A stretch of 64,000 bases of DNA from a virus. Taxonomy: Duplodnaviria > Heunggongvirae > Uroviricota > Caudoviricetes. Location of the stretch: positions 201,867 to 265,866 of the IMG/VR virus record IMGVR_UViG_3300029935_000001. One strand, 5' to 3'. The first letter of the stretch is position 1; every line of letters starts with the position of its first letter. Of this stretch, positions 7,180 through 43,923 are shown in pieces. Both the position numbers and the translations under genes were made by a program. Below the pieces are notes generated by a model. It did no database searches, had not been told where the DNA came from, and saw only the letters and a program-made list of their open reading frames with translations.

Positions 7180-7362
7180 ATGGGTTATCGAGTGTTTGAA
7201 GCCAACGACGGGTTCGGCGCGCGCAAAGGCCTCGAAGGCCCGTTCCGTTACCCCAGCGGTCGCGTTGTATATTACGATCCCAAAGAGGGCAAGTATTATG
7301 ACCCCAAAACGGACTGGTACTTAAGCCATCAAGAGGCGTTAGAACTTTATGCATTAACCTGA
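7180..7362 (+). CDS. hypothetical small protein
   Basis: Promoter-driven 60-aa ORF. Confidence 0.45.
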
Positions 7363-7928
7363 GCACGTTGAGCTGCTCGATACGCGAGCATCTTCTCGCG
7401 TATCTTTTGCTTATGTTCTTCGGTTTGTTTGTGCCCTTTCTTTTTAGGCTTGCCAAGATGCGCTGCTGCTATCTTAGCTTTAGTCTCTTCAGAATGTTTA
7501 TCAGGAGAACCATCTAGACGAGCAGGTTTTTTGCGTCCTTTGAACTTTTCGCTCATCTTCTGTTTCCATTCGTCACTATGTTCAATTTTCTGTTTAGCTC
7601 GTGCAGCACGAATCTTTGCCTTAGCTTCTTCTGTATGGGTTCTACCAAACATATAGTTGAGCTCTCCAGGGAATGATCCCCCATCCCCGCCGTCGGTTTT
7701 GTTATAGAGAATACCTGTACCAATATCCTTTCTGCCATACCAACGGATATACCTGCGCTCAAGAGCCAATGCACCAACTTCGGTTAATCCTGTCTCAAGA
7801 AACACTATTCTCGAACGATCGCGAGGAACAGTAACATTGTGTCGGCCAAACACGCGGTTGCCTTGGCCTTTTCCGATATAGTACGGGGTTCCGTCTTTAC
7901 GGAGATAAGCATATGTATAGTAGTTCAT
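7347..7928 (-). CDS. GIY-YIG homing endonuclease with NUMOD3 DNA-binding repeats
   Basis: N-terminal [20 protein letters not shown]...R...E (GIY-YIG); three NUMOD3-like repeats ([15 protein letters not shown]; [15 protein letters not shown]; [15 protein letters not shown]); minus strand against the genome polarity. Confidence 0.8.
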
Positions 7929-8035
7929 ATTATTATTTATCCGCGCACTGATTTTTACCTCTCAGACGACGAGGTTCGCGCACTCCAGGATTCCATCTAC
8001 AATGTGCTGCGCACGTAAAAAGATTTAGATTTAGG

Positions 8036-8478: not shown

Positions 8479-8479
8479 C

Positions 8480-8800
8480 ATGGACTACCGAGACTCGCCA
8501 ACAAAAACTCAAATCGGACTGGTAGTTGAGTGTGTAGGGCCCGATTCGAGCAAGACCTCGGTCATTTATTCCGTTGCTGGATTAGGTGTAATTTGTCCCG
8601 ACTTGCTGCTAACTTGCGGGTCCGCTTTTCGAATGTCAGTGTATCTCAGCGCACTGATTGACGGCACCGATCGATTGGCCGATGCGTTTGGACGCTACGC
8701 TATTAGCGTTTGGATTTCTGGGGAACAATACTACGACGCCGAGTCAATCGCAGCCGCTCTTGTTGCTGCTCACTATAACGCACAAAATAAGACTATATGA
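8480..8800 (+). CDS. hypothetical protein
   Basis: ATG overlaps the upstream stop (tgacATGg); in frame with track ORF 8342..8800. Confidence 0.4.
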   Translation: MDYRDSPTKTQIGLVVECVGPDSSKTSVIYSVAGLGVICPDLLLTCGSAFRMSVYLSALIDGTDRLADAFGRYAISVWISGEQYYDAESIAAALVAAHYNAQNKTI

Positions 8801-9246
8801 AATACACAATCGAACAAGCTGCTCAGATCCTCAACCTTGCTGGGCCTCGGCATGTGTCGGGATATGCTTGGCGCAAAACATTCCTTAATCACGTCACTTT
8901 GACCGAGGCACAGTGGCTGGCTACAAATCGCTGGCGCCGCGACATTCCGCAGCTTCAGAACGAAACTACTTACGATCGGTGTGTCGATGCTTGTGTGTGT
9001 GCACAATCGGGTAAGATTATCGTGACGGTTACTATCTACAACGGCGACCTGGTAGACGGGTTCCCCACTGATGCGCGTTGCAAGTTCGCCGGCGAGTTGA
9101 CCGAAATGTGCCCTGAGGTTGCAACGGTTGTAGAACAGGCGTTTGGGACACTGGTCGAAGCGGAAGTAGAACGACGCGAGAAAGCCCGTATCGACCGGCT
9201 GCGCGCAGAGGTCGAAGCACAGTTTTCCAGAACTTTCAACCTCTAA
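8797..9246 (+). CDS. hypothetical protein
   Basis: ATGA start/stop overlap with the previous gene. Confidence 0.45.
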   Translation: MKYTIEQAAQILNLAGPRHVSGYAWRKTFLNHVTLTEAQWLATNRWRRDIPQLQNETTYDRCVDACVCAQSGKIIVTVTIYNGDLVDGFPTDARCKFAGELTEMCPEVATVVEQAFGTLVEAEVERREKARIDRLRAEVEAQFSRTFNL

Positions 9247-9249
9247 CGG

Positions 9250-9306
9250 TTGACTTAAAACTCCCAAGTAGTTATAATAAGTTATTAAACAAATAAAGAG
9301 GCAAAT
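9250..9306 (+). promoter_or_regulatory. sigma70 promoter TTGACT-17-TATAAT with SD AAAGAGG (the original pnk promoter)
   Basis: -35 at 9250-9255, -10 at 9273-9278. Confidence 0.55.
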
Positions 9307-9339
9307 ATGCAAGCCATTATCACTGTTGGCGTTTCGTAA
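9307..9339 (+). pseudogene. displaced 5' remnant of pnk (MQAIITVGVS-stop)
   Basis: A 10-codon ORF behind a strong SD whose peptide and DNA (..GGCGTTTCG) match the start of the intact pnk gene (MGKAVICVGVSASGKS); it diverges exactly where the endonuclease cassette begins. Confidence 0.6.
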
Positions 9340-9395
9340 GGTAACTATTGCTGTCTCTGCCTAAAAGTGCATAAATAAAGCGTCAGGAGAGAATA

Positions 9396-10388
9396 GTGAT
9401 ACCAACAAGAGCGCAATACTTTTTTACTGAGCGTGGATTTTTTAGAAAAAACGTCCTCAAAGAAGAAAAGTTCAGTCAACGCTATCCAGCTGTTTATGCA
9501 GAAATTAACAAAATTACTTCAACCTCGTTGCCGTGGCGAGAACGAGTGTATCTATATATACATGATGCACAAGAACCCCCACTCTGCCACTGCGGATGCG
9601 GAGAGCGGTGTGCTTTTTCGAACTGCCAAGACTCGAGTCGATTTACATATTTAAAGTTTTATTCAACTAAGTGCAAAGCTCGTGCTTATGGCGGTGTTGG
9701 AAATCCGTTTTTTGGTAAAAATCACTCAGATGAGACAAAAGAAGCAATCAGAGTTAAAAAGCAGGGCAAAACATATTCGCCCGAAGTAAACGCTAAAAAA
9801 GTGCGTCGCGGTGCTCAAAACGGAATGTACCAGCGTTGTAACTATGACGTTTGGCTCGAAAAATACGGCCCAGAAATTGCTTTACAAAAGCAGTTAGCAG
9901 CAAACGCTAAAAAAGTGCGTCGCGGTGCTCAAAACGGAATGTATGGTAAGTCGCCATCAAAAAAAGCTGGCAATTCTGTTAAGTGTTGGTACAAAGGTTA
10001 CTTTTGCCGCAGTTTATCCGAGCTAAGTTTTATAATAAACTACTGCGAGCGATTTAGGTTATTGTTTGAAACTGCCGAAACTACAAAATACAAAGTTGTT
10101 ATAGGTCCTAATAAAACGTACAGACCGGATTTTTTAGTAAACAACAAATTTATTGTTGAGATCAAACCAAAAGGGCTACAGAAGGCCCATGCTGACAAGT
10201 TTAGCATAGCCAAAGCAGAGTTTCTAAAGCAAGGGCTAACGTTTAAAGTCATTGACCCTATTAAAAAACTAAGTTATAATGACATTTTTGCGCTAATGCA
10301 AACGGGTGCCGTAGAAATAATGGCTGCTACGCATAGCAAAACTTATAACAACTTTATGAAAAGGTATCAAAAATGGGCAAAGCGGTAA
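9396..10388 (+). CDS. free-standing homing endonuclease (Zn-finger + NUMOD3 repeats + C-terminal PD-(D/E)xK-like nuclease)
   Basis: GTG start after AGGAGAG; CHCGCG zinc motif; NUMOD3-like GKNHSDETKEAIRVKKQGK; duplicated AKKVRRGAQNGMY module; C-terminal RPDF...VEIKPK motif; inserted between the pnk remnant and the intact pnk. Confidence 0.7.
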   Translation: MIPTRAQYFFTERGFFRKNVLKEEKFSQRYPAVYAEINKITSTSLPWRERVYLYIHDAQEPPLCHCGCGERCAFSNCQDSSRFTYLKFYSTKCKARAYGGVGNPFFGKNHSDETKEAIRVKKQGKTYSPEVNAKKVRRGAQNGMYQRCNYDVWLEKYGPEIALQKQLAANAKKVRRGAQNGMYGKSPSKKAGNSVKCWYKGYFCRSLSELSFIINYCERFRLLFETAETTKYKVVIGPNKTYRPDFLVNNKFIVEIKPKGLQKAHADKFSIAKAEFLKQGLTFKVIDPIKKLSYNDIFALMQTGAVEIMAATHSKTYNNFMKRYQKWAKR

Positions 10389-11281
10389 TCTGTGTCGGCG
10401 TTTCGGCTTCTGGAAAAAGCACCTGGGCGCGCAATTTCATCCACGACCGTACTACGAATGCCGGCGAGCAGTGGGTTGACATCAATCGCGACTGGGAACG
10501 GCGCTGTATTTTGGTCGAAAAGTCGCAAGGTCAGATTGACCGGCTCGTTTGGCGCCACTGGAAGTGGAAGTGGGAGGACGAAGTCACCCAACGTTGTGAA
10601 GCTCGTCTTGCCGAAGCGGCTGCTGCCCAGAAAAGTGTTGTGATCTCGGATACCAACCTGAATCGAGACCGCCGGACGGCTTTGAAGCACAAGCTCGAAG
10701 CACTTGGGTACGATGTTGAATACAAGTTTTTCTCGGTTACGTTCGAGGAAGCGTGCCGGCGCGATGCTGAACGCGAAAACGGTGTTGGTTACTCGGTGAT
10801 CGCTAAGCAGTTTGAGCAGTGGAATGCCGAGTTTCATGCTAAGCACATCCTGCAAGCTGGTTTGCCTGAATGCGTGATCGTTGACATCGACGGCACCATG
10901 GCTCACATGAAGGGGCGCGGCCCGTTTGATTGGGCGCGAGTGGGCGAAGATACAGTCGACCCGGTTGTGGATCGAATGGTCCAAGCCCTTCAAGACCAAG
11001 GATTTAAGATCGTTTTCCTGTCGGGGCGCGATGGCTGCTGCGAAGCTGAAACTCGCGAATGGCTCCGCAACAAGACCAGCGTCGGCGAGTTCGAGCTGTT
11101 TATGCGCACGGCAGGCGATTCGCGACGCGACGACATTGTCAAGCAAGAATTGCTTGCTGAGCATGTCGAAGGGCGTTACAATGTTTTTTGCGTGTTCGAC
11201 GATCGCCCCCAAATGATTCGCAAGTGGCATGCTATGGGTCTCAAGGTAATGGCTGTTAGCAACCCGTACCTCGAGTTTTAA
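10373..11281 (+). CDS. pnk: polynucleotide 5'-kinase/3'-phosphatase (T4 Pnk-like)
   Basis: N-terminal P-loop GVSASGKST; C-terminal HAD phosphatase motif VIVDIDGTM (DxDGT) plus downstream Asp residues; same domain order as T4 PseT. Confidence 0.8.
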   Translation: MGKAVICVGVSASGKSTWARNFIHDRTTNAGEQWVDINRDWERRCILVEKSQGQIDRLVWRHWKWKWEDEVTQRCEARLAEAAAAQKSVVISDTNLNRDRRTALKHKLEALGYDVEYKFFSVTFEEACRRDAERENGVGYSVIAKQFEQWNAEFHAKHILQAGLPECVIVDIDGTMAHMKGRGPFDWARVGEDTVDPVVDRMVQALQDQGFKIVFLSGRDGCCEAETREWLRNKTSVGEFELFMRTAGDSRRDDIVKQELLAEHVEGRYNVFCVFDDRPQMIRKWHAMGLKVMAVSNPYLEF

Positions 11282-11282
11282 C

Positions 11283-11570
11283 ATGTGGTTTGAAGTATTA
11301 GATGAGCGTGTTGGCCCGTATGTAGTAGTTAACGGACACGGATTTGTCTACTACATACGGGCCGAACACTACTATCATCACCTGCTGTCAGGTGATACAT
11401 TCTATTCGCTAACCCTGCTGCAGATTGCTGACTTCGCGATTGATCTACAAACTAATGAGATCAAAAAGTGTCGAGTACCGTGTCACAAGTTAGTCGAATC
11501 TTATATTTTAAGGAATCACCAAGATGATGTTCATCCCGAAAGAAAAACTGAAGAGCGGTGCGTACTATGA
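11283..11570 (+). CDS. hypothetical protein
   Basis: ORF immediately after pnk. Confidence 0.4.
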   Translation: MWFEVLDERVGPYVVVNGHGFVYYIRAEHYYHHLLSGDTFYSLTLLQIADFAIDLQTNEIKKCRVPCHKLVESYILRNHQDDVHPERKTEERCVL

Positions 11571-11784
11571 AGGGCGCAGTCGAAACTCATCGCTGGCCCG
11601 CTGGAACGGCGATGTGTTTATCTACTGGCGCTATAAGATGGGCGAGCATTTTCTCGACGAAATCGGTTGCCCTGAGGATGACCGATACAATGGGTTCGAC
11701 GTGTTTTTGCCTACTCGCGAGCTCAAAGAACTACCAAAGGGCTGCAAGGTTATCCCAATGTCTATAACTCCAGGGAAAGAATAA
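11524..11784 (+). CDS. hypothetical protein
   Basis: ORF with AGGAATCACCAAG ahead of the ATG. Confidence 0.4.
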   Translation: MMFIPKEKLKSGAYYEGRSRNSSLARWNGDVFIYWRYKMGEHFLDEIGCPEDDRYNGFDVFLPTRELKELPKGCKVIPMSITPGKE

Positions 11785-11930
11785 TGGCTAAGAAAAAAGT
11801 CAAAGCAAAGGTGATTACAGCCCGCCCTGCTGAGTATGCTCGATTTTACCTTCGAGTATCCGAAAGCCCGGCGTCTCCGGCACAGCTTCCTGAGCTCATG
11901 GTTCGGCAGGTTCTGGACCGAGGGGTCTAA
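11784..11930 (+). CDS. small basic protein (48 aa)
   Basis: taATGg overlap with the upstream stop; SD GGGAAAGAA. Confidence 0.35.
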   Translation: MAKKKVKAKVITARPAEYARFYLRVSESPASPAQLPELMVRQVLDRGV

Positions 11931-11933
11931 GCT

Positions 11934-12737
11934 ATGCGCGTAGGGATCGTTGGGCATTGTGGCGTAGTTGGTTCTGCATACGCCCGCATTTATACAAATC
12001 GTGGAGCCAATGTCATTGGAATTGATCCAGCTGACCACAACTCTGCTAGCTATAGCGACCTCGATGGTGTTCGGTTAGTGTATGTTTGTGTGCCTAGCCC
12101 AACCACCGGGACTGGCTGGTGCGATACCTCGGTGCTAGAGCAAACGGTTATGCAGGTAGCTGCATTAAATCTGAAGGTGCCGATTGTGTGCAAGACTACT
12201 GCGCCGCCGTCGGTCTATGCGCAACTTCAAGCGCAGGCACCGGAAGTGATTCATGCACCTGAATTTTTGCGGCAAGACCACGCTCGCTACGATATTGAGC
12301 ATGCTGAGCTGTTAGTGTATGGGGGCGCAGCCCGAGTGACCCAACTGGTTGCGCGGCTCGAAGCTGAGTTTATTTACGATTCATTTCGTGCTCGCGTCGA
12401 AATGACTGACATCAAGACTGCTGCGCTATACAAATACCTGCGCAACGCGTACCTGGCTGCTAAGGTCACGTTCATGAATGATTTCTACAATCTAGCCACA
12501 GCCGCACAGGTAGATTGGAAGAACGTCCAGCACATCCTCGAGCGCGACGAGCACCTCGGTCCTACTCACAACGCAGTACCTGGCAAGGACGGGTTTGGCT
12601 GGGCCGGTCCGTGTTTTCCGAAAGACTTGACTGCGCTAGTTAGCTATGCTAACGTACATGCTGTAGACTTACCTGTGCTCGAAACCGTTCTCAAGCGCAA
12701 TCAACAACATCGTCTAAAAAACAAGGACACAAAATGA
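11934..12737 (+). CDS. UDP-glucose/GDP-mannose dehydrogenase-family protein (short form)
   Basis: Rossmann GIVGHCGVVGSA; APEFLRQDHARYD (compare NPEFLREG); catalytic-Cys motif GWAGPCFPKDL (compare GGSCFPKD); lacks the C-terminal UDP-binding domain. Confidence 0.55.
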   Translation: MRVGIVGHCGVVGSAYARIYTNRGANVIGIDPADHNSASYSDLDGVRLVYVCVPSPTTGTGWCDTSVLEQTVMQVAALNLKVPIVCKTTAPPSVYAQLQAQAPEVIHAPEFLRQDHARYDIEHAELLVYGGAARVTQLVARLEAEFIYDSFRARVEMTDIKTAALYKYLRNAYLAAKVTFMNDFYNLATAAQVDWKNVQHILERDEHLGPTHNAVPGKDGFGWAGPCFPKDLTALVSYANVHAVDLPVLETVLKRNQQHRLKNKDTK

Positions 12738-13285
12738 AAGTTCAAACTGAAGAAAGTATTGTTAACCAACTCGCTGATCAAATCGCGCGACTAGAAACTC
12801 TTATTGCTGAGGCCAAGGCAGTTCTTGGCATTAAAGCAGACACTCAAACTGCTGATCTATCCAGCACTTCGCCCATCATTTACCGTCGGCTTCGCTTGCA
12901 GACTGAACAAGGCACCCCCGACAACCTCAACTGTATTACGTTTGCGTTCCGCATCAACTACGCTGCCAACGTATTGCAGGCGGGCTGGAGTATTGCTAAC
13001 AACGAAAACGTGGATCTCGAGCGTGGTCGTGCGTTGGCTGCTGAACGCCTTGACAAGGATCCACTTGAAGTAGAGTACAAGGCTGGTCGCAGCCTAGTCA
13101 ACAACGTATATGCTCACTTTTTTGGTGCGGGGCCGCTGGCTCACCTGCTTAACGGTTCGTTTAACAACAATCTATACAACGCGCTAAAGCGCAAGCTTCG
13201 CGGCATGCAGTCACAAAAAACTGTGCACATCGAAGACGCGTTCGAACAGGTAGTTCAAACTATGAATCGTAGAAAAAAAGGTTGA
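12734..13285 (+). CDS. hypothetical protein
   Basis: ATGA overlap with the previous gene; ends ...RRKKG-stop, with the TGA inside the next -35 box. Confidence 0.45.
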   Translation: MKVQTEESIVNQLADQIARLETLIAEAKAVLGIKADTQTADLSSTSPIIYRRLRLQTEQGTPDNLNCITFAFRINYAANVLQAGWSIANNENVDLERGRALAAERLDKDPLEVEYKAGRSLVNNVYAHFFGAGPLAHLLNGSFNNNLYNALKRKLRGMQSQKTVHIEDAFEQVVQTMNRRKKG

Positions 13286-13341
13286 CCAGAGCAGCCACGT
13301 TGCGTATAATACGTACATAAGATAACGCAACGGAGCAAGCA
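13282..13341 (+). promoter_or_regulatory. conserved promoter-leader cassette
   Basis: aaaaaaGGTTGACC-17-TATAAT-acgtacataagataACGCAACGGAGCAAGCAATG. Confidence 0.7.
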
Positions 13342-13503
13342 ATGCGCCAAGTTACTAAGAAAGAGTTTTACGAAGTATGCAAGAGCAAACCCCGTGCTGC
13401 GTCGGTCGTTGGCGGCGTTGAACTGCGTTATTACAGCCGAGCCAAACAACTAATCGGCAAGGCGTGCCGCATCAACAAAAAAATTACATATTGGGTGTTC
13501 TAA
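13342..13503 (+). CDS. small basic protein (53 aa)
   Basis: ATG at the canonical position after the conserved leader. Confidence 0.5.
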   Translation: MRQVTKKEFYEVCKSKPRAASVVGGVELRYYSRAKQLIGKACRINKKITYWVF

Positions 13504-13516
13504 GAAAGGCCACAAA

Positions 13517-13909
13517 ATGATCTCTTACGCAAACGCATGTGCCGCAGTTGGTTATGACCCGCGTGCCGAACGTCCGGCTCCCGAGTACCAGTTTTACGCC
13601 TACAAAGCCGGAAAGGCTGTAGCATTTCCCGCCTTCGACCTTGCGATGAAGTATAGCCGGAACGTCGAGCGAGTAGCTGTCAACCAAAACGAGATCGACG
13701 CCTTCCGGGACAACCAACGCAAGCGCGAGCAGCAAGCCGCTAAGTATTGGTACGATGAGCTGCGTAGCGACTTCCGGGACCTCTCGGACAAGCAATTTGC
13801 GCTGGTGTATGCTCGCGCGTACGAAGAGTGCCACAGCTCAGGCTACGACGATATTGCTGCTGAGGTTGACACGCTTGTGGATCTATGCCGAGCGTTCGCT
13901 AACGCCTAA
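13517..13909 (+). CDS. hypothetical protein
   Basis: SD AAGAAAGG upstream. Confidence 0.45.
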   Translation: MISYANACAAVGYDPRAERPAPEYQFYAYKAGKAVAFPAFDLAMKYSRNVERVAVNQNEIDAFRDNQRKREQQAAKYWYDELRSDFRDLSDKQFALVYARAYEECHSSGYDDIAAEVDTLVDLCRAFANA

Positions 13910-13920
13910 TCGCAAAAAAA

Positions 13921-13984
13921 GGTTGCTCGCCTGGGCAGCCTTTGCTATAATGTTTTTGTTAAGACACTACTAAGGAACCGCACA
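13921..13984 (+). promoter_or_regulatory. sigma70 promoter TTGCTC-17-TATAAT
   Basis: aaaaaaaGGTTGCTC...TATAAT at 13944-13949; drives the RNA ligase gene. Confidence 0.55.
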
Positions 13985-15082
13985 ATGCGTAAGCTTGCTA
14001 CCATTCGTAAGATCGCCGAGATCAAGCCCATCGAGGGCGCCGACGCCATTGAACATTACCGCGTACTTGGGTGGTGGGTCGTTGACAAAAAAGGTGCCCA
14101 TCAAGTCGGCGACCTTGTCATTTACCTCGAGATCGATTCCTGGGCGCCCAATGAGCTGGCTCCGTTCCTGAGCAAGGGCAAAGAGCCGCGCGAATACAAC
14201 GGCGTTAAGGGCGAGCGCCTCAAAACTGTTAAGCTTCGCGGCGCTATCTCGCAAGGGCTGCTGCTGCCCGTTAAAACCGGAATCGGCGGCTACCCGTTTG
14301 TTGAGGGCTCCGCCGGCGAGCACACTGTTGTTCACGAAGGCGACGATGTCTCCGAACTGCTCGGCATTCAAAAATACGAGCCGCCCGTTCCGGCTCAGCT
14401 GCGCGGCAAGATTGCCGGCACGTTCCCGAGCTGGCTGCGAAAAACTGACCAGGAACGGATCCAATCTTGTTTTGCGGAGATTGAGCCTCTGCTCAGCGGC
14501 CTTTGGGTGATTGAAGAAAAGCTCGATGGGTCGTCTATGACTGTTGGCTACCGCAAGGGTGATTTTATCCTCGACAAGGATGGCCAGCCCATCCCTGAAG
14601 AAACTGTGGTTTGCTCGCGTAATCTGTCGCTCAAGCTCGACGATGACGCTAACTCGTTTGTGCGTGTGGCCCGAGAAACTGGCGTGCTTGACGCGCTGAA
14701 GGCGTATGGCCGTAACCTGGGCATTTCAGGCGAGCTGTGCGGCGAGGGCATCCAGGGTAACAAGTATAACCTCAAGGGCCAGCGCTGGTTTGTTTTCGAC
14801 ATTCTCGACGTTGATCGGGCCGAGTACGTTAGTTACGAAGAGCGCCAGCTGATCATCAATGATCTCGTTGCGCTCGGCGCCCAACTTGATCAAACTCCAC
14901 TGATTGCTGAGGGCGTTACGCTTGAGGGCATGACCGTCGACGGCTTGCTCCGAGCTGCTGAAGCGAAGAGTGCGCTGAATATTCAAGCCGAGCGTGAAGG
15001 ACTGGTATATAAGAGTGTTGAGCGGCCTGATGTGTCGTTCAAGGCTATTAGCAATCGGTGGTTGCTTAAAACTGGGGAATAA
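13985..15082 (+). CDS. ATP-dependent RNA ligase with N-terminal OB/tRNA-binding-like domain (Rnl5/DraRnl-like)
   Basis: N-terminal Myf/EMAP-like OB segment (RKIAEIKPIEGADAIEHYRVLGWWVV); nucleotidyltransferase motif I KLDGSS, motif IV EGLVYK, motif V FKAIS. Confidence 0.75.
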   Translation: MRKLATIRKIAEIKPIEGADAIEHYRVLGWWVVDKKGAHQVGDLVIYLEIDSWAPNELAPFLSKGKEPREYNGVKGERLKTVKLRGAISQGLLLPVKTGIGGYPFVEGSAGEHTVVHEGDDVSELLGIQKYEPPVPAQLRGKIAGTFPSWLRKTDQERIQSCFAEIEPLLSGLWVIEEKLDGSSMTVGYRKGDFILDKDGQPIPEETVVCSRNLSLKLDDDANSFVRVARETGVLDALKAYGRNLGISGELCGEGIQGNKYNLKGQRWFVFDILDVDRAEYVSYEERQLIINDLVALGAQLDQTPLIAEGVTLEGMTVDGLLRAAEAKSALNIQAEREGLVYKSVERPDVSFKAISNRWLLKTGE

Positions 15083-15188: not shown

Positions 15189-15601
15189 AAAATCACACCG
15201 TTACGTTCTACAGTCCAGGCACGTTTGTGTCCGAAACCACCAAGGTCGAAATCTCCGAGTGGGATGTTGATACTGCGCTGCGGCTTGCGTTTGGGATTAC
15301 TGAACGCCACGGTGCTCGACCGTACGCGTTCCGCTTTGCTACCGAAACAGTCGGGCTGGATGCCCCAGCTACCGAAACAGCAAGATCGCCATTGCACTTT
15401 ATTGGCGGTCGTGTTCGCACGTTAGCTGAAGTCGAAGCAGACAACCTGCCCGGCGAAGAAGTGCTGCGCTGGAACATGAAGCACAACGGTATTGCTCGTG
15501 TGATCGAAACCAACACATCATACAAGCATACCTCCGAGCTAAAAGACGACGATATCGTTCTCGACGAGAAATATCTGACAGCTTTTAGACTCGCAAACTG
15601 A
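15185..15601 (+). CDS. hypothetical protein
   Basis: ATGA overlap with the previous ORF; followed by an intrinsic terminator. Confidence 0.45.
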   Translation: MKNHTVTFYSPGTFVSETTKVEISEWDVDTALRLAFGITERHGARPYAFRFATETVGLDAPATETARSPLHFIGGRVRTLAEVEADNLPGEEVLRWNMKHNGIARVIETNTSYKHTSELKDDDIVLDEKYLTAFRLAN

Positions 15602-15609
15602 TGTAAATA

Positions 15610-15643
15610 GCGAGGTGTGTTGAAAAACCACCTCGCTTTGTTG
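15610..15643 (+). terminator. intrinsic terminator (gcgaggtg...cacctcgc + tttgttg)
   Basis: 8-bp GC-rich stem followed by a U-tract. Confidence 0.65.
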
Positions 15644-16117
15644 CATCAACAGTGGGACCGCAAACCACTATAAAAAGTGCGCTAACAGGACAGTCTGGTA
15701 TGCGCTCGCATACTCCCATTGAGCTAGCCGAGGTAGTGCTCGTAGCCAGCAGATCTTGGGTCCGCCGCCAGCAGGCAAACGGTTGCCGATTTTGTGACCC
15801 GAGGAAAGCCGCCGAGAGGAGATGCGAGAGTTCTCTAAATGATGTGGGCAACTGTGAAAAAGATACAACCCACGCTTTGTATAACTGAAGGTGTAGAGGT
15901 TATACAAGGAACCGTTGAAAGCCAATAACCGATGTAGGGGGTACAGGTCAACCGCCTCCGCGCTGCAGATGTTCGGCAGTAATCAGGGCTACACCCACGC
16001 GGAAACGCCCGACTCGTCGAATTCCTGTGAAAATTTGCCCGCTCTGGGCAAATTACGACCAATCTTTCGAATATCCCTTAAAAACTTTAAAATAATTGCC
16101 ATAAGAATTTGTTTGCG

Positions 16118-16157
16118 AACGAGTTGAACACGAGTGACAAACGAGTGTGAGCGAGTG
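16118..16157. repeat. four iteron-like ACGAGTG repeats phased about 11 bp apart, next to an AT-rich stretch
   Basis: aACGAGTTg / cACGAGTG / aACGAGTG / gCGAGTG at 16118-16157; the AT-rich run aaaactttaaaataattgccataagaattt lies at 16081-16110. Confidence 0.45.
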
Positions 16158-16289
16158 AAGCAAACAGGTGTTTGTAGAACACCTTCATACAGTAAAACCC
16201 GTTTGGGCATTTGTAAGTGTCTAGAATTCTGAGTTGACAATCAGCGTTCGTTTTTGTAAACTATGATTTATTAACCACAGAGGTGTTAA

Positions 16290-16616
16290 ATGCCTAGAAC
16301 TAAAGCCGAACGGCTTGCTGCAATCCAAACAATGTATTTGCTTGCAGCTGATAATGGACGGCTCTCAGAGAGCCAAATTGCCCAACTTATTGCAGATGTC
16401 GAACAGGTAATGGATCCTCACTATACTGTGACTTTTCGGTGCCGGCACAGTCAGATGAAAAAACTTCTGCAAGCAGTAAACCGAAAGCGCAATCGTTTAT
16501 TCTTTGACGTTGACCTCGAAGTAAATGAAATTAAAAAATCGTATTTCAAACTCGAAGATACTCAATACGCGGTAACTATGCGCTATGCTACTCGCCCGTC
16601 CGGCGCGCATTATTAA
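16290..16616 (+). CDS. hypothetical protein
   Basis: SD GAGGTG ahead of the ATG. Confidence 0.45.
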   Translation: MPRTKAERLAAIQTMYLLAADNGRLSESQIAQLIADVEQVMDPHYTVTFRCRHSQMKKLLQAVNRKRNRLFFDVDLEVNEIKKSYFKLEDTQYAVTMRYATRPSGAHY

Positions 16617-17128: not shown

Positions 17129-18115
17129 ATGCAGATTGGATTTTGTTGCAAGATGGTTATGCCGGCGGTGAAAAAAGGTTTTGAAAACATCGAATCCTGC
17201 AACTTCAAGACTACTACGGCTAAGTGGCTGCGCGAGCATCCGGGCTCGGCTCCTGAACGGCTTGATAGTATCTTGCGTCACAATTTGCAAGCAGTCAAGG
17301 ACCTAATCAGGCGGGTAGCTCAGCGGCCGCAAGTGGGACGCATGGTTCGCATTGGCTCGGATATTTTTCCACTCTTCACGCACCCTGACGCTCGGTGGTA
17401 TTGGTCAGACCCGCTAGTGCTCAAGTTTGCTGAGTCTCAACTAGCTATAGCGGGTGCTACTGCTCGCGCAAGCGGTGTTCGTTTGTCTATGCACCCGGGA
17501 CAGTTTGTTGTACTCGCGTCCGAATCAGAGAACGTCCGCGCTAACTCAGTCGAAGAGTTTGAGTACCACGCGTTAGTAGCTCGCATGATGGGCTACTGTG
17601 TCACCGATCACGATTTTAAGATTAACGTTCATTTATCGGGCAAAGGCGGCACAGCAGTGTTTCGTCAGACTTACGCTCAGCTCAGCCCCGAAGCACGTTC
17701 CTGCATTACCATTGAGAACGACGAGTTTCAAGCTGGGCTCGATCGAGTGCTTGAAATTGCTGATTTGTGCCCGATTGTGCTTGACCTACACCACCACTTT
17801 ATTCACTCCGGCGAGTACATCCAGCCCACCGATCCTCGCATTCAGCAAGTTATTGCGTCGTGGCGCGGCGTTCGACCAGTTATCCACTACTCGCAGTCTG
17901 GTGAGCAGTATCTTGCTCACTTCCCTAACACCTTGCCTACTCATGCCGAGCTACTCCAAGTTGCTCCGCGCAGCAAGCTTCGCGCACACTCGGACTTTTA
18001 CACCCACACTCAAACAAACGCCTGGGCGCTGCAACACTTAGAGTGGGCAGACATCCAGGCAGAATGTAAAGCCAAAAACTTAGGTGCCGACCAGCTTATT
18101 GCTGCTTTGTCTTAG
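17129..18115 (+). CDS. UV-damage endonuclease (UvdE/UVDE family, TIM barrel)
   Basis: MQIGFCCK start (compare M-R-L-G-Y-x-C); ITIENDE (compare LENDD); IVLDLHHH triple-His; 328 aa, typical length. Confidence 0.6.
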   Translation: MQIGFCCKMVMPAVKKGFENIESCNFKTTTAKWLREHPGSAPERLDSILRHNLQAVKDLIRRVAQRPQVGRMVRIGSDIFPLFTHPDARWYWSDPLVLKFAESQLAIAGATARASGVRLSMHPGQFVVLASESENVRANSVEEFEYHALVARMMGYCVTDHDFKINVHLSGKGGTAVFRQTYAQLSPEARSCITIENDEFQAGLDRVLEIADLCPIVLDLHHHFIHSGEYIQPTDPRIQQVIASWRGVRPVIHYSQSGEQYLAHFPNTLPTHAELLQVAPRSKLRAHSDFYTHTQTNAWALQHLEWADIQAECKAKNLGADQLIAALS

Positions 18116-21124: not shown

Positions 21125-21424
21125 ATGATGAGCATGAAGACCCTCGAGCGGTACCATCAACTTCAAGGACTGATGGTCGGCTATAGCACCGAACCAGAAA
21201 AAAAGCAAACTCTCACGGAGATGCAACGGCTGTTCCAGCACCTCGATGTTGTTTCCTGTGTTGAGTATGCTCGCGCGTGCAAAACCGAACTAGTGCTAGT
21301 TGATTGCAAGCTCGAGGGCGAAGACATGTTCCAGGTCGCGCACAGCAAAACTAAATTCTGCTTCTTTATCGGCACTCGCACCGCTTGTGAAGAATTTCTC
21401 TCCAAGGTGTTTAAAAAAGGTTGA
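21125..21424 (+). CDS. hypothetical protein
   Basis: Ends ...FKKG-stop inside the next -35 box. Confidence 0.45.
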   Translation: MMSMKTLERYHQLQGLMVGYSTEPEKKQTLTEMQRLFQHLDVVSCVEYARACKTELVLVDCKLEGEDMFQVAHSKTKFCFFIGTRTACEEFLSKVFKKG

Positions 21425-21482
21425 CCGCCTGCCTGCTTTCTGGTATAATAGCTACATACAGTAACGCAACGGAGCAAAGATC
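21421..21482 (+). promoter_or_regulatory. conserved promoter-leader cassette
   Basis: TTGACC-17-TATAAT-AGCTACATACAGTAACGCAACGGAGCAaagatcATG. Confidence 0.7.
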
Positions 21483-25321: not shown

Positions 25322-25918
25322 ATGACCACCCTTATCCCCATCGTTGTTGAACAAACTGCCCGCGGCGAACGCTCCTACGACATCTTTAGTCGTATGCTCA
25401 AGGACCGTATTGTTTTCCTCAACGGCCCTGTTCGCACTGAGATGTCGCATTTGATTGTAGCGCAGCTTCTTCTACTTGAAGCCGAAGATCCTGAGCGAGA
25501 CATTGTTATGTACATTAACTCGCCAGGCGGCGAAGTCACTGCAGGCCTGGCAATCCTTGACACTATGCGTTTCATCAAGCCTGACGTAGTTACGGTAGTA
25601 ATGGGGCAGGCGGCGTCAATGGGCTCACTGCTTGCATCCTCGGGCACTAAAGGAAAGCGCTATCTGCTGCCCAATGCGCGGCACCTCATCCACCAGCCAC
25701 TCGGCGGCGCCTCGGGCCAAGCCTCGGACATCGAGATCCATGCCAAGGAGATTATCCGCCTCAAGCGCGAGCTCACTGAAATTTACGTAGGCAACACAGG
25801 CAAGACATTTGAAACACTCGAGCGCGACATGGATCGTGACAACATTATGACGGCTGCTGAATCCGTGGCATATGGCCTCGCTGACAAAATCATTACTAAC
25901 CGACTTGACGGGCTATGA
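25322..25918 (+). CDS. clpP: ATP-dependent Clp protease proteolytic subunit ClpP
   Basis: 198 aa; [14 protein letters not shown]; active-site Ser in QAASMGS; His in LIHQP; canonical Ser-His-Asp triad spacing. Confidence 0.9.
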
Positions 25919-31552: not shown

Positions 31553-32467
31553 ATGAATTTCAAATCTGTACCTGCCGTAATCTTCGACTTTCCGCCCCTT
31601 GCGGCAATTCTCGTAACTCTCTCTACACTGTTTCTTGCTGCGTGCGGCGACCGAGTTGAAGTGCCCCCAGCACATGTAGCCAAGATCATGACCAAGGATG
31701 GCTACAAGGCCGACACCATCGGCACGTCAAAATTTCGTCTTGAATGGTGCTGGGCATACTGCGACAAGCTGGTTCTGCTTGACGCGTCTGACCAAGCAGT
31801 GTCTGAAAAGATGGAACTTTTCATGCCGCAAGACAAGTTGAACATGGCGTTTGACTTGCGTCTAACGCTAGTGGTCAATCCCGACAAGTACGAAGAACTT
31901 TTTGCGCGGGTGCCGCCAGTTGAACAAAACGGCATCGAGTACATTGCCTGGGCAAAAGCATATCAAACGTATGCGCAGCAAATCGTTCGAGCCGAGGCAC
32001 GTGAATTCCTGAGCGGTTTTACGATTGCTGAAATCGCCAGCTCGCGCGAAGCGATTAACGCACAGCTTAGCACACGACTGACTGAGAGCATCAACAAGCG
32101 CACCCCGTTCCAAGTACGGTACGTTGGGCTAGCTGACATTCAGTACCCAGCAATTATTGTCGAAGCGCAAGAAAATGCAGCGCAGCGACGTGAGCAGATC
32201 CAACAAGAAGAAGCGCAGCTCGAAATTAGCAAAGTGGCACTTGAGCGACAACTGCAAGAGCAACAACTTCAGCGCCGAATTGACGTTGAACGCGCTCAAG
32301 CAGAAGCAGAAGTTGCGCGCATTCAATCGCAATCGCTTACTCCGCAATACATGAAGTATCGCGAACTTCAGATCCTAGAGAAGCTCGCAACAAGCGACAA
32401 CAAGGTGTTTGTGCCTAGCACGATGCTAGATTCGATCGCCGGTCAAGTGCAACTTGGTCGTCAGTAA
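31553..32467 (+). CDS. SPFH/band-7 (stomatin/prohibitin/HflKC-like) lipoprotein
   Basis: Lipobox LAAC after the signal peptide; central SPFH-like region; long C-terminal coiled-coil Q/E/A/R heptads (EQIQQEEAQLEISKVALERQLQEQQLQRR...). Confidence 0.5.
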   Translation: MNFKSVPAVIFDFPPLAAILVTLSTLFLAACGDRVEVPPAHVAKIMTKDGYKADTIGTSKFRLEWCWAYCDKLVLLDASDQAVSEKMELFMPQDKLNMAFDLRLTLVVNPDKYEELFARVPPVEQNGIEYIAWAKAYQTYAQQIVRAEAREFLSGFTIAEIASSREAINAQLSTRLTESINKRTPFQVRYVGLADIQYPAIIVEAQENAAQRREQIQQEEAQLEISKVALERQLQEQQLQRRIDVERAQAEAEVARIQSQSLTPQYMKYRELQILEKLATSDNKVFVPSTMLDSIAGQVQLGRQ

Positions 32468-39036: not shown

Positions 39037-41811
39037 ATGACGCAAATACGCTGGATAACAAGTGCCGGGTCGTTAGGGACCATTCCGGAAGGACGATTTT
39101 ACCGACTACCACTCCAGGCGGTTGCTCCCGGTGAAGATGTGAAATTTAAACTGATCTCAGGCAGGCTTCCTGCAGGGATTCAAGTAAAAATAAACGGAAC
39201 ACTTGAGGGCATACCAGAAGCAGTGGCAATAACACAAGGTGTTCCACTTCCGGTTGACCGCAATGTAACTTCAAAATTCACTGTTCGAGCATACGTCACT
39301 GACGCCCATGGCACAGTGATTGGCATTGCTGACCGGACGTTCGAAGTTACCGTCACGGGTCAAGACGCGCCGCGGTTTGTTACCCCAAGCGGTAGTCTCG
39401 GCGGTTTTTTAGATGCCACCGAGGTCCGCATTCCTATTCAAGTAGCTGACGACGACAACGAAGAGTTAACAATCACTGTCGCGTCTGGCCAGCTCCCACC
39501 GGGCCTTACTGTTGTTGGTAATGTTATTCAAGGCATTATTGAGCCCGAACTTACTCTCGAAAACACTGCTATTCCTGGATTTGACAGATCATCATACGAC
39601 CAGTATCCGTTTGACTTTTCTGCTATCGCAGTGGACCGTAATTATCAATTTACCTTAGAAGTTACCGACGGAAAAGAAACCGATCGCCGCCAATACTCAA
39701 TATTTGTAATGGCGCGCAACAACATCCCACTGGATCCGAGCGAACGGTTTGCGTTATTATCAGGGTTGGTATCAAATTCCGACTCCGATTGGACAGTTGA
39801 GCGGCCTCCGTTTATTACAAACGCATTAAACGAGTTAACAGTTCGCCACGACAACTACTTTTTTTTAAAATTTAATACTGTCGATTTCGACGGCGATCAA
39901 GTGGGAGTTAGGGTCGTCGGCGGGGTGGTGCCGCCATTTCTTTATAATTTCAAAGACACAAACACAACGTTCGATAATGGGACTACTACATTTAAAGAGC
40001 GTTTAGAGGCGTATAAGACTGTTACCTTTGATAATAAGACTACAGTGTTTGATAGCGGCCGTACTCAAATGTTTGTTTCTGGGCATATAACTTTCGACAC
40101 AACCACTCCGAATTTAACATCTAACGCAACAACATTTGATTGCAGGTTGAGCAGCGGCGAAACCTCCGCTACGAGGTTTTATAGTTATTTGCCAGTTAAT
40201 GTTGCTACTTCTTTTGTTAACAATTCGTTGTTCGGCCAACTACCAGACCAGGGTGCCACTGAAGAAGAGTATGTGTTTGTAGTCGAAGCCTACAAACTCA
40301 ACAACCCCGCAATTCGAAGCCGCCCATACCAGTTTAAAATAACCGTAGTCGGCGACATCGAAAAAGAGGTTACCTGGTTAACTGCTACAGTAGACTCAGT
40401 TTGGACTGGCCAGCCATCAACGTCGTTTGTTCAAGCAGCCAGTAAGCTGGGTTATCCGCTACAGTATCGGTTAGCGAAGAACACAGCTAGCAAGTTGCCG
40501 CAAGGCTTACAACTGTTGCCAACAGGTGAAATTGCCGGCCGCCCAAGTATTAACCAGCTAATGTTCGACGGTGAAAAAACCACATTTGATTCGGAACTGG
40601 CCACCCGTCGCGAAGTTAAACCAACTACGTTTGACCGAACTTTTGAATTTGTTGTTGAAGCTTTTTACGTCGATCCTGCCGACGCAACTAACACAATTGT
40701 TTCGACATTTAAGCAATTTACCATCCAGGTGCGTGATTCCGCTAAGCGGCCGTGGGAAGGGTTGTATATTCAAGCAATGCCTCCACTGGACGACCGCGCA
40801 ATAGTGCGGGAGTTTTTATCTAGTACCATTTTTGATCCTGAGATGTTGTTTCGGCCAAATGACCCAAACTTTGGCTTAGCTCGAAACATAGTTTATCATC
40901 ACGCGTTTGGTGTCACTGCTGCTGATTTAGAACAATATGTAGATGCCGTGCAACAATCGCATTATTCCAAAGAAGTCACAATCGGTGAACTGAAGAGCGC
41001 ACAAGCCCTGGACGACAACGGTCAAGTTGAATATGAAGTAATTTATGCGTCTATTGTCGACGATTTAGTCACCGCTAGCGGAGAGTCAATTTCTACTCGT
41101 GTTCAGTTACCGCCATTAAAAAATCGTCCGGTTGATGCTAGCGGAGTTCCAGTCTCTGGTGTTTATCCAAACAGTTTGCAAAATATGCAGAAGCGTATAT
41201 TTACTGAAGTTGGGAGAGTAATACCGTCACTCCCAGCTTGGATGCGTTCTAAACAACCCGACGGCCGGGTGTTAGGCTTTACACCTGCGTGGGTTATAGC
41301 TTACACCAAACCCGGAAAATCACGCGAACTGCTGTATCGAATACAAGAAAATTTTATAAATGTTTTTAATAAAATTGACTTTTCGGTTGATCGATTTATT
41401 GTTGACAAAGAACTAACGTATATCTGGGGTGCAACGCGAACCCCTTCGTATGCAGCTTCGCTTGCGGGTGCAGGAGTTACTGTGTTGCCTGGCGCGTGGG
41501 ATACTCCAACATACACTACGTTTGACATTGATGTCAATCGCACATTTGATCCAGTTAACACATACGACCGTGGCACGGTCACAACAGAAACGCTCGCAGA
41601 CCCGCCGTTTTGGATCAGCGGCGCTGTGTCAACTATTATTTCAAATTCGTGTGGCCAGTGGGACTGCGGCGAAGTGTTGGGTCTAAGCGGCGGAACTGGC
41701 ACTACTTTTGATCGAGCCCGGTTGCGGTTTGTTGCTCCTGTGATTTCCTACGGGCAAGGCGACATTCATAATAAATATGTTATGTTCACAAAACGAGGTA
41801 TTTTTAAATGA
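39037..41811 (+). CDS. large structural protein (924 aa) with N-terminal Ig-like (He_PIG-type) repeats and multiple T-T-F-D motifs
   Basis: Repeats ISGRLPAGIQVKINGTLEGIP / ASGQLPPGLTVVGNVIQGIIEP / ASKLPQGLQLLPTGEIAGRP; at least 8 copies of (T)TFD; likely tail-fibre, baseplate or decoration protein. Confidence 0.55.
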   Translation: MTQIRWITSAGSLGTIPEGRFYRLPLQAVAPGEDVKFKLISGRLPAGIQVKINGTLEGIPEAVAITQGVPLPVDRNVTSKFTVRAYVTDAHGTVIGIADRTFEVTVTGQDAPRFVTPSGSLGGFLDATEVRIPIQVADDDNEELTITVASGQLPPGLTVVGNVIQGIIEPELTLENTAIPGFDRSSYDQYPFDFSAIAVDRNYQFTLEVTDGKETDRRQYSIFVMARNNIPLDPSERFALLSGLVSNSDSDWTVERPPFITNALNELTVRHDNYFFLKFNTVDFDGDQVGVRVVGGVVPPFLYNFKDTNTTFDNGTTTFKERLEAYKTVTFDNKTTVFDSGRTQMFVSGHITFDTTTPNLTSNATTFDCRLSSGETSATRFYSYLPVNVATSFVNNSLFGQLPDQGATEEEYVFVVEAYKLNNPAIRSRPYQFKITVVGDIEKEVTWLTATVDSVWTGQPSTSFVQAASKLGYPLQYRLAKNTASKLPQGLQLLPTGEIAGRPSINQLMFDGEKTTFDSELATRREVKPTTFDRTFEFVVEAFYVDPADATNTIVSTFKQFTIQVRDSAKRPWEGLYIQAMPPLDDRAIVREFLSSTIFDPEMLFRPNDPNFGLARNIVYHHAFGVTAADLEQYVDAVQQSHYSKEVTIGELKSAQALDDNGQVEYEVIYASIVDDLVTASGESISTRVQLPPLKNRPVDASGVPVSGVYPNSLQNMQKRIFTEVGRVIPSLPAWMRSKQPDGRVLGFTPAWVIAYTKPGKSRELLYRIQENFINVFNKIDFSVDRFIVDKELTYIWGATRTPSYAASLAGAGVTVLPGAWDTPTYTTFDIDVNRTFDPVNTYDRGTVTTETLADPPFWISGAVSTIISNSCGQWDCGEVLGLSGGTGTTFDRARLRFVAPVISYGQGDIHNKYVMFTKRGIFK

Positions 41812-42650: not shown

Positions 42651-43559
42651 ATGAGGCTAGACGACCACACCCTCGTTGCAAATTTTATCAAACGGGTGCA
42701 ATTAAGACAGCCGAACTTTTTTGCGTATTATGATTACTCTGAGGCCGAGCTCAACAGAAGCAATGGCAAAATTAAATTAAAATGCCCAGCACATGGGGAA
42801 TTCTGGACAAACAGGGGCGATCATTTAAGTGGGTATGCAGGGTGTTCTGAATGCTCGGCAGAAAAAAGAAAGAAGACGCTTTTAGCAAAATACGGGGTTG
42901 ACAATTTTTTTAAGAGGACGGACTTAGTTGAGCAAGCGATGCTCAAAAAACACGGGGTTAAAAATCCCGGGTTGTTGCCAGATCACGTGGCTAAAATTCA
43001 AGAAACTAGTCAACAAAGATACGGAATACTGTGGGCCAACCAAACTGATGTATCAAAAGCACATCGAAAGAAAACTAATTTAGAAAAATTCGGCCACGAA
43101 TATCCGATGCAAAATACCGCAGTATCAAAAAAAATGGTCGCAACTAAGATAAAAACTGGCGGATTTACAAAGTCAAATTCAAGCAAACAAGCTACATCCT
43201 ATATTAAAAGTTATATTGAGAGTAAACACTACGACTTATCACAGTGCGCTTTTGCTAGTGTTGAGGATGGCCTCTACGAGTGGGGTATTTATGTTAGCGG
43301 CCGGTGGCTGTTGTTTGACTTAGTAGTGTTTGAAAAAGGGCATCGTGGAAATAAAGAAAAGATACTCGAAATACTCGAATTCCACGGGCCTTTCCACTAT
43401 AATGAAATAGATGTTCAGTTGCGCGGCAATGATGCGGCATATCCTTGGAAAACTAATCGAACCACTATTATGGAGAGCTATATGCGAGATAAAGAAAAAG
43501 AAGCCGTTGCGTTATTGTTAACGGATAAGTTTACAATTGTATGGGGCAAAGATTTATGA
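42651..43559 (+). CDS. free-standing homing endonuclease-like protein (repeated KYGV-N DNA-binding modules + C-terminal nuclease-like domain)
   Basis: Four ~22-aa modules (AKYGVDNFFKRTDLVEQAM / KKHGVKNPGLLPDHVAKIQET / QRYGILWANQTDVSKAHRKKT / EKFGHEYPMQNTAVSKKMVAT); inserted between mazG and a duplicated mazG 3' fragment. Confidence 0.55.
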   Translation: MRLDDHTLVANFIKRVQLRQPNFFAYYDYSEAELNRSNGKIKLKCPAHGEFWTNRGDHLSGYAGCSECSAEKRKKTLLAKYGVDNFFKRTDLVEQAMLKKHGVKNPGLLPDHVAKIQETSQQRYGILWANQTDVSKAHRKKTNLEKFGHEYPMQNTAVSKKMVATKIKTGGFTKSNSSKQATSYIKSYIESKHYDLSQCAFASVEDGLYEWGIYVSGRWLLFDLVVFEKGHRGNKEKILEILEFHGPFHYNEIDVQLRGNDAAYPWKTNRTTIMESYMRDKEKEAVALLLTDKFTIVWGKDL

Positions 43560-43681: not shown

Positions 43682-43923
43682 TGGAACACCCATTTATTCA
43701 CGGCTTGGGCCATCTTAGTGCAGACGAGATTCAAGCCACGCTTTCGGAGTTGTATAAAAAACTAGCGTTCGCATCTCGCTCTGGAAATAGTATGCTAGCG
43801 AATCAGATTCGAATGGCAATAGAATCATACCAAGTTGCACATACTCGTAAGCTAGAGGAAATGATCCCTAAGCCCAACGATGATGACGACAGCGACCCTT
43901 TTACTCTAATAGATATATCATGA
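43681..43923 (+). CDS. hypothetical protein
   Basis: taATGg coupling. Confidence 0.4.
   Translation: MEHPFIHGLGHLSADEIQATLSELYKKLAFASRSGNSMLANQIRMAIESYQVAHTRKLEEMIPKPNDDDDSDPFTLIDIS

Follow-up and report, generated by a model that had tools for sequence, protein, structure and literature searches.

A T4-type polynucleotide 5'-kinase/3'-phosphatase (Pnkp) and an Rnl5-family ATP-dependent RNA ligase lie near each other on the plus strand of a 64,000-nucleotide stretch of a Caudoviricetes genome (positions 201,867–265,866 of IMG/VR record IMGVR_UViG_3300029935_000001; hereafter the window). On balance we favour a role for this pair in RNA healing and sealing, with both enzymes expressed early in infection as a counter-defence. 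An earlier note on this DNA had placed the two open reading frames (ORFs) on this strand, 2.7 kb apart, and quoted several diagnostic motifs; both ORFs are found at 10373–11281 and 13985–15082, and every quoted motif is present. The source is probably a jumbo phage, since a relative with the same gene order sits on a 340,122-bp ENA contig. The window thus covers 64 kb out of roughly 340 kb, with ~80% of the genome outside it.

The Pnkp (302 residues; 10373–11281, +) combines an N-terminal P-loop 5'-kinase and a C-terminal DxDxT 3'-phosphatase in a single polypeptide, as expected of the T4 type. The whole protein matches the PHROGs family phrog_505, “polynucleotide kinase” (E 6e-86). Its best solved-structure match is T4 Pnkp (1ltq; E 3.6e-39), to which residues 2–295 align colinearly with 34% identity. 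The kinase domain (residues 5–154; 10385–10834, +; PF13671 AAA_33, E 2e-16) carries the P-loop GVSASGKST at residues 9–17. The phosphatase domain, a DxDxT acylphosphatase (residues 165–296; 10865–11260, +; PF25109 HAD_PNKP, E 9e-45), carries DIDGT at residues 171–175. The two Pfam domains, the PHROG and the colinear structural alignment bear out the proposal of a T4-type kinase-phosphatase.

Conservation extends to the catalytic residues. Kinase residues Lys15, Ser16, Asp40, Arg43 and Arg134 align with T4 Lys15, Ser16, Asp35, Arg38 and Arg126, of which we take Ser16 and Arg38 to be essential from earlier mutagenesis. Phosphatase residues Asp171, Asp173, Thr175, Ser217, Lys257 and Asp277 align with T4 Asp165, Asp167, Thr169, Ser211, Lys258 and Asp278. 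Roles are described for T4 Lys15, Asp35 and Arg126 in the kinase and for Asp165, Asp167, Ser211, Lys258 and Asp278 in the phosphatase (PMC3592404; Thr169 is not among the residues described). Domain order is the same as in T4 Pnkp (PseT, PDB 1LTQ), the lengths are 302 versus 301 residues, and all checked kinase and phosphatase residues are kept. The protein therefore looks like an apparently fully functional T4-type Pnkp. By homology it would be expected to have 5'-kinase and 2',3'-cyclic/3'-phosphatase activities on RNA ends. Its closest relatives among GenBank phages are found in Stenotrophomonas and Xanthomonas phages at ~45% identity (best 46%, in Stenotrophomonas phages). An antisense ORF of 305 residues (10367–11284, minus strand) is a shadow of the Pnkp gene.

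The ligase (365 residues; 13985–15082, +) belongs to the Rnl5 family by every feature of sequence and structure that could be examined. It aligns colinearly over residues 1–362 with the Naegleria gruberi RNA ligase NgrRnl (5cot; E 8e-66; 45.6% identity over 331 aligned residues). It scores 185.2 bits, above the cutoff of 151.15, against NCBIfam TIGR02306 (the RNA_lig_DRB0094 equivalog, named after DraRnl) over model positions 2–341 of 341, and it matches the PHROGs family phrog_968, “RNA ligase” (E 6e-75). The only real matches in the PDB were Naegleria gruberi RNA ligase entries (5cot and others); Rnl1, Rnl2, Rnl3, Rnl4 and REL1 structures gave no match in that search even at E ≤ 1. The nucleotidyltransferase domain (residues 133–365; 14381–15082, +; PF09414 over residues 174–354, E 3e-20) contains KLDGS (residues 179–183), EGLVYK (338–343) and FKAIS (352–356). 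Because the protein stops 12 residues beyond the motif V lysine, it has no C-terminal domain. Nothing after motif V could form the C-terminal domain of the Rnl2 class (T4 RNA ligase 2/REL1), and the ligase matches neither PF09511 nor the C-terminal tRNA-specificity domain PF20819, both expected of Rnl1.

This architecture, with an N-terminal OB domain, a C-terminal nucleotidyltransferase and no C-terminal appendage, is the same in NgrRnl (PDB 5COT) and DraRnl (DR_B0094), and it agrees with the Rnl5-like arrangement claimed in the earlier note. Unlike NgrRnl, the window ligase is phage-encoded and has two short insertions: one of ~22 residues in the OB domain (97–118), which forms an extra beta-hairpin in the model, and one of ~12 residues following motif I (196–207). 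T4 Rnl2 (gp24.1), a nick-sealing ligase, has a nucleotidyltransferase domain of the same Pfam family, PF09414; in the window ligase the C-terminal domain of Rnl2 is replaced by the N-terminal OB domain.

Lys179, in motif I (KLDG; codon at 14519–14521, +), is the predicted adenylylated nucleophile. It aligns with NgrRnl Lys170 and is invariant across 22 aligned homologs; the presence of this lysine had been set beforehand as a check on the assignment. Elsewhere in the nucleotidyltransferase domain, Thr154, Arg158, Asp181 and Arg212 align with NgrRnl Thr145, Arg149, Asp172 and Arg190, and Glu250, Phe271, Glu338 and Lys353 with Glu227, Phe248, Glu312 and Lys326. The ligands of the catalytic metal and the ATP phosphates (Arg158, Asp181, Glu250, Glu338 and Lys353) are thereby kept. 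In the OB domain (residues 1–132; 13985–14380, +; PF21189, PHA02142 OB-fold domain, over residues 4–96, E 1e-25), the contacts to the ATP gamma-phosphate and second metal are preserved as Arg2, Asp51 and Lys130, equivalent to NgrRnl Arg4, Asp53 and Lys121 and invariant among the same homologs. All twelve of the NgrRnl residues checked, whose roles are described in PMC7261155, are kept in the ligase, each invariant or at least 90% conserved in the 22-homolog alignment. With this intact active site the ligase looks fully active.

The OB domain has a tRNA-binding/EMAPII-like fold. After NgrRnl, its structural neighbours are tRNA-binding OB modules (Trbp111-like, PheRS-beta, MetRS-C and EMAPII), consistent with the Myf/EMAP-like module proposed for it and with the likening of the DraRnl N-terminal module to the PheRS OB fold (PMC1807946). 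Its match to the NgrRnl OB fold also disposes of the suggestion that it might be a permuted Rnl2 domain. In NgrRnl the OB domain mainly promotes lysine adenylylation, with the pyrophosphate leaving group held in place (PMC7261155).

It is extremely improbable that the motif matches arose by chance or that either ORF, or both, is a decayed or inactive remnant. The full-length alignments to crystallised enzymes, at E 8e-66 for the ligase and E 3.6e-39 for Pnkp, and the retention of all checked catalytic residues effectively refute this from the sequence, as does the finding of both genes intact in independent assemblies. An identical ligase sequence with the same neighbours occurs on a 5.8-kb Logan contig. 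The 340,122-bp relative (ENA contig ERZ27247813 k141_189559) encodes a ligase 91% identical to that of the window, in DNA that is 76–82% identical.

In the mechanism that we propose, Pnkp would heal breaks like those made by metal-independent ribonucleases, converting 2',3'-cyclic-phosphate/5'-OH ends to 3'-OH/5'-PO4. The DxDxT phosphatase would remove 2',3'-cyclic or 3'-phosphates via an aspartyl-phosphate on Asp171, and the P-loop kinase would phosphorylate the 5'-OH. Rnl5 would be adenylylated by ATP on Lys179, assisted by the OB domain holding the pyrophosphate leaving group, and would then move AMP onto the 5'-phosphate; attack by the RNA 3'-OH would form the phosphodiester. Homology predicts Mn2+-dependent sealing of 3'-OH/5'-PO4 nicks, needing an RNA 3'-OH strand. 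If it behaves like DraRnl and NgrRnl, the ligase would prefer a nick in a duplex with RNA as the 3'-OH strand, so that breaks in base-paired RNA (tRNA or rRNA stems, guide:target duplexes) would fit better than an anticodon-loop break of the T4 Rnl1 type. The targets would be the products of host RNA-cleaving defences, countered early in infection.

Healing followed by sealing has been textbook logic since T4, in which Pnkp and Rnl1 reverse the cleavage of tRNA-Lys by PrrC. The window pair shares with that pathway the order of healing then sealing, the end chemistry and early-looking phage genes. Unlike in T4, the ligase near Pnkp is of the Rnl5 type, no Rnl1-type ligase is seen in the window, and characterised members of the Rnl5 class prefer duplex nicks (PMC4408790). 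DraRnl and NgrRnl act on nicked duplexes with a 3'-OH RNA strand and are feeble on single-stranded RNA (PMC4408790, PMC5397189), and Rnl5 and Rnl2 reportedly have the same in vitro substrate specificity (PMC5397189). From this biochemistry, the substrate expected for the window ligase would be nearer that of T4 Rnl2 than that of T4 Rnl1.

Promoter-like sites upstream of both genes point to early expression. Exact matches to TTGAC-N18-TATAAT occur 20 times in the window, all on the plus strand, against 0.01 expected from shuffles (5744, 7121, 9250, 10252, 13282, 19819, 21063, 21421, 27205, 31492, 35502, 36479, 36848, 48854, 49421, 52506, 54983, 56792, 58538 and 63247). Most read TTGACC...G/TTATAAT, and as a group they resemble strong early promoters of the host type, densely placed. 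One sigma-70-type site, TTGACC-N17-TATAAT (10252–10280, +), falls within the 3' end of a homing-endonuclease-like ORF, 93 bp ahead of the Pnkp start. A second site of the same form (13282–13310, +) precedes a 53-residue ORF, a 130-residue ORF and Rnl5; the sequence around it (13275–13338) recurs at ~21414–21477 of the window and at 17563–17626 of the 340-kb relative (L082). No convincing terminator was found between Pnkp and Rnl5. With one such site before Pnkp and another before the Rnl5 unit, the two genes look like consecutive early transcription units driven by host RNA polymerase, and we infer early production of both enzymes, as would be expected of a counter-measure against RNA-cleaving defences. 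Separately, the same 29-mer is present at 36479 and at 36848, a hint of local duplication.

The 2,703-bp gap between the two genes holds seven ORFs on the same strand (11283–13909, +), of 95, 86, 48, 267, 183, 53 and 130 residues in order, which are given as context. The intervening and flanking small ORFs have no match to an RNA-repair family in Pfam, PHROGs or NCBIfam. The 267-residue product (11934–12737, +) is a truncated UDP-glucose/nucleotide-sugar dehydrogenase-like protein, below NCBIfam cutoffs; it has the central domain and a portion of the NAD-binding domain but lacks the C-terminal UDP-binding domain, and is kept in the close relative. Gene order on the 340,122-bp contig is Pnkp, 95 residues, 81 residues, 48 residues, UGDH-like, 201 residues, 130 residues, Rnl5, with UvdE further on. 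The idea that the intervening ORFs form a conserved module with the ligase was rejected, as tblastn found no counterpart near Rnl5 in 80 other phage loci.

These 80 IMG/VR loci carry Rnl5 relatives at 44–70% identity and were searched for repair genes within ±10 kb of each ligase; co-occurrence figures drawn from them and from genus counts are estimates. An RNA-repair partner (Rnl1-like ligase, P-loop kinase or Pnkp-type HAD phosphatase, alone or combined) was present in 26 of the 80, representing 14 of 48 clusters at 80% ligase identity. Rnl1-like ligases were found in 22 of the 26, stand-alone P-loop kinases in 16 and Pnkp-type HAD phosphatases in 12. The tested neighbours outside RNA repair were less frequent: RNase H in 9/80, DNA ligase in 7/80, DenV in 5/80 and UvdE in 1/80. 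A Thg1-like enzyme, itself a candidate tRNA-repair function, was near Rnl5 in 5/80.

In several lineages Rnl1, kinase, phosphatase and Rnl5, in some cases with a deaminase, are packed into a tight cassette whose frames abut or overlap. In two uncultured phages (IMG/VR loci L045, 6591–10125, and L037, 7144–11035) the order is Rnl1-type ligase, stand-alone P-loop polynucleotide kinase, stand-alone Pnkp-type HAD phosphatase and Rnl5, so that two different ligases flank the healing genes; a dCMP-deaminase-like ORF lies between kinase and phosphatase in L045 only and is absent from the L037 cassette. The components were confirmed with Pfam and by a match of the L045 Rnl1-type ligase to T4 Rnl1 structures. 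Across the IMG/VR cassettes (L031, L035, L037, L038, L043, L045, L070, L071, L018 and L025), an Rnl5 ~46–50% identical to the window ligase is linked to a 5'-kinase and a Pnkp-type 3'-phosphatase. The cassettes include an Rnl1-type ligase and are made of abutting genes, with kinase and phosphatase encoded separately; the window has a fused kinase-phosphatase, shows no Rnl1 and has 2.7 kb between its two genes. That Rnl5 is repeatedly linked to healing enzymes in other lineages supports a general healing-and-sealing role, and the Rnl1/kinase/phosphatase/Rnl5 cassettes give a modest hint of RNA repair. In a survey of jumbo phages, too, polynucleotide kinases and HAD phosphatases were found to track ATP-dependent RNA ligases (PMC7824862).

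The earlier note had gone further and called the two genes a tRNA-repair pair. General healing and sealing is backed by the linkage seen elsewhere; the pairing itself is less secure, given the seven ORFs, the promoter-like site between the genes and the closer ligase relatives that have no Pnkp. Both enzymes could instead be active in separate pathways, with Pnkp partnering an Rnl1-type or RtcB ligase elsewhere in the ~340-kb genome, as in T4, and Rnl5 doing a separate job; the 2.7-kb closeness would then merely reflect the crowding of auxiliary genes in an early region. We regard this as the less probable account, with a real if minor chance of being right. Xanthomonas phages X1 and BUDD carry both genes about 14–15 kb apart, many Rnl5 phages seem to have no Pnkp, and several non-redundant RNA ligases are common in jumbo phages (PMC7824862). 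Against it, no second ligase was detectable in the 64 kb at hand: tblastn with the L045 Rnl1-type ligase gave no match at E ≤ 1e-4, and a KxDG...EGxV motif scan of all window ORFs of at least 80 residues returned only the Rnl5 ORF, though neither search detects RtcB-type ligases. Healing enzymes are also the commonest of the tested Rnl5 neighbours in other lineages, and Pnkp would yield exactly the 3'-OH/5'-PO4 ends that an ATP-dependent ligase requires.

Several observations weigh against coupling of Pnkp and Rnl5 in RNA repair. Between the two genes lie seven unrelated ORFs and a second promoter-like site. Their order is kept only in the close relative (L082–L084), so common ancestry alone explains its conservation. 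In the tight cassettes of other phages Rnl5 joins Rnl1 rather than replacing it, and the real partner of Pnkp could be an Rnl1 or RtcB encoded beyond the window. The ligase relatives at 70–76% identity (L002, L085 and L086) have no Pnkp within 10 kb. Pseudomonas phages account for 219 of the 347 GenBank phage records with an Rnl5 homolog, and Pseudomonas, with <55 Pnkp records, does not rank among the ten genera in which Pnkp is commonest; many Rnl5 phages would therefore be without a T4-type Pnkp, and most of those in GenBank appear to be. As for tRNA repair in particular, characterised Rnl5 enzymes seal duplex nicks and not anticodon-loop breaks (PMC4408790).

The only physiological role shown for any Rnl5 is in reassembly of the DNA genome after irradiation in Deinococcus (PMC5397189), where knockout of DraRnl causes sensitivity to ionising radiation and delays that reassembly; DraRnl also joins RNA-3'-OH to DNA-5'-PO4 ends (PMC5397189). 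The pair might accordingly serve DNA repair or replication, Pnkp healing 3'-phosphate/5'-OH DNA ends and Rnl5 sealing nicks with a short 3' ribonucleotide patch, as proposed for DraRnl. Rnl5 may then act in a repair neighbourhood with the UvdE-type UV-damage endonuclease (17129–18115, +; PF03851, E 4e-37; phrog_8420, E 1.5e-76), which lies 2 kb downstream of the ligase and is kept in the close relative. In Synechococcus phage S-CREM1 the ligase gene is 5.5 kb from a pyrimidine-dimer glycosylase, and in L085 and L086 a DNA ligase lies 1.5 kb downstream of Rnl5, which also counts against an RNA-repair role. We consider a DNA role quite unlikely in view of the 80 IMG/VR loci, in which UvdE (1), DenV (5) and DNA ligase (7) are outnumbered near Rnl5 by RNA-repair partners (26). 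RNA healing and sealing thus remains our preferred reading of the pair.

The L085 locus (ENA scaffold; ligase 73% identical) has features of its own. At 9153–11104 a 54-residue ORF, whose only match is to the OB domain of Rnl5, precedes a NUMOD3 homing-endonuclease-like ORF and, after that, a full-length Rnl5; this looks like a homing-endonuclease insertion with duplication of the 5' end of the ligase gene. A stand-alone AAA_33 kinase, the DNA ligase, a Thg1-like enzyme and an Acb3 homolog are also encoded there.

The phage has no close relative among those in GenBank. A megablast search of GenBank phages with the 4.7-kb region returned nothing, and protein matches are all below 60% identity (best for the ligase 52%, Synechococcus phage S-CREM1). 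The ligase was oversold as being of an unusual flavour. Rnl5 homologs occur in those 347 GenBank phage records, the family has its own PHROG, and a large protein database holds ~8,000 relatives at E ≤ 1e-10. Phage homologs of DraRnl were reported in 2007 from Aeromonas phage 44RR2.8t (PMC1807946) and in 2015 from further Aeromonas, Caulobacter, Mycobacterium and Sinorhizobium phages (PMC4408790), and phage Rnl5 homologs are mentioned explicitly in PMC5397189.

Nor is the enzyme set new to phages. The jumbo-phage survey of Iyer et al. (2021) described ATP-dependent RNA ligases together with a polynucleotide kinase fused to a HAD phosphatase (“PKN-HAD”; PMC7824862). Two of the surveyed phages, BcepSauron and BcepSaruman, carry an Rnl5 homolog too, as found by our GenBank search. 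That survey sorts ligases into Rnl1 and Rnl2 without singling out Rnl5, and in the window a single ligase is visible. In other phage cassettes Rnl5 holds the position of a second ligase beside Rnl1 and Pnk, as Rnl2 does in T4. With both families already curated and phage homologs plentiful, the annotation is correct and fairly ordinary, and no unusual system is involved.

By its character, the window is read as an early or auxiliary gene region of a very large phage. Nearly all of its genes are small and on the plus strand. Besides several homing-endonuclease-like ORFs, those annotated include genes for ClpX, Hsp20, ClpP, UvdE, a clamp loader, a metallophosphoesterase and an SPFH protein. A tRNA scan found no tRNA genes and an Rfam gathering scan no match in the whole window. 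The Pfam scan took in 37 window ORFs in total, among which there was no RtcB, 2H phosphoesterase, Thg1 or CCA-adding enzyme. The ClpX-like protein (533–1741, +; with a zinc finger), Hsp20 (2024–2521, +) and ClpP (25322–25918, +) constitute a phage-encoded proteostasis set. An SPFH/Band-7 protein is encoded at 31553–32467.

Homing-endonuclease-like ORFs recur in the window. That at 9396–10388 (+) combines NUMOD3 with a TnsA-like nuclease domain, shares 16 nt with the start of Pnkp and holds the promoter-like site preceding Pnkp; window 8479–10393 has no counterpart in the 340-kb relative. Another (7347–7928, minus strand; NUMOD3) lies inside a ~660-bp insertion (7281–7938) relative to L082, and a third (42651–43559, +) matches DUF7487 and homing-endonuclease PHROGs. 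Near the third are ORFs at 39037–41811, 43920–44525 and 44512–45015 (+), including a 924-residue ORF without a Pfam or PHROG match and, a short way downstream of the homing-endonuclease-like ORF, a 167-residue ORF whose sole match is to part of the DNA polymerase III alpha NTPase domain; this may be a polymerase gene that is split or in fragments. A stretch of ~690 bp (15601–16290) downstream of the ligase unit has no plus-strand ORF of at least 90 residues and no Rfam match. It aligns with L082 up to window position 16190, the matching L082 gap without a called gene being 11597–12283, and a promoter-like site lies within it at 16234–16262.

The sole in vivo phenotype of an Rnl5 ligase is the radiation sensitivity of the Deinococcus knockout. 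A phage with an intact Rnl5 near an intact Pnkp is a tractable candidate for asking what Rnl5 repairs during infection. A stronger version of our reading, which we think unlikely, is that this jumbo phage has Rnl5 as its sole RNA ligase and that Rnl5 is the enzyme with which Pnkp works physiologically, the Rnl5 OB domain steering the ligase to breaks in base-paired tRNA or rRNA or to guide:target-duplex cuts by RNA-guided defences. If true, an Rnl5 ligase would for the first time have a physiological RNA substrate, and the phage a counter-defence that differs from the T4 Rnl1 pathway.

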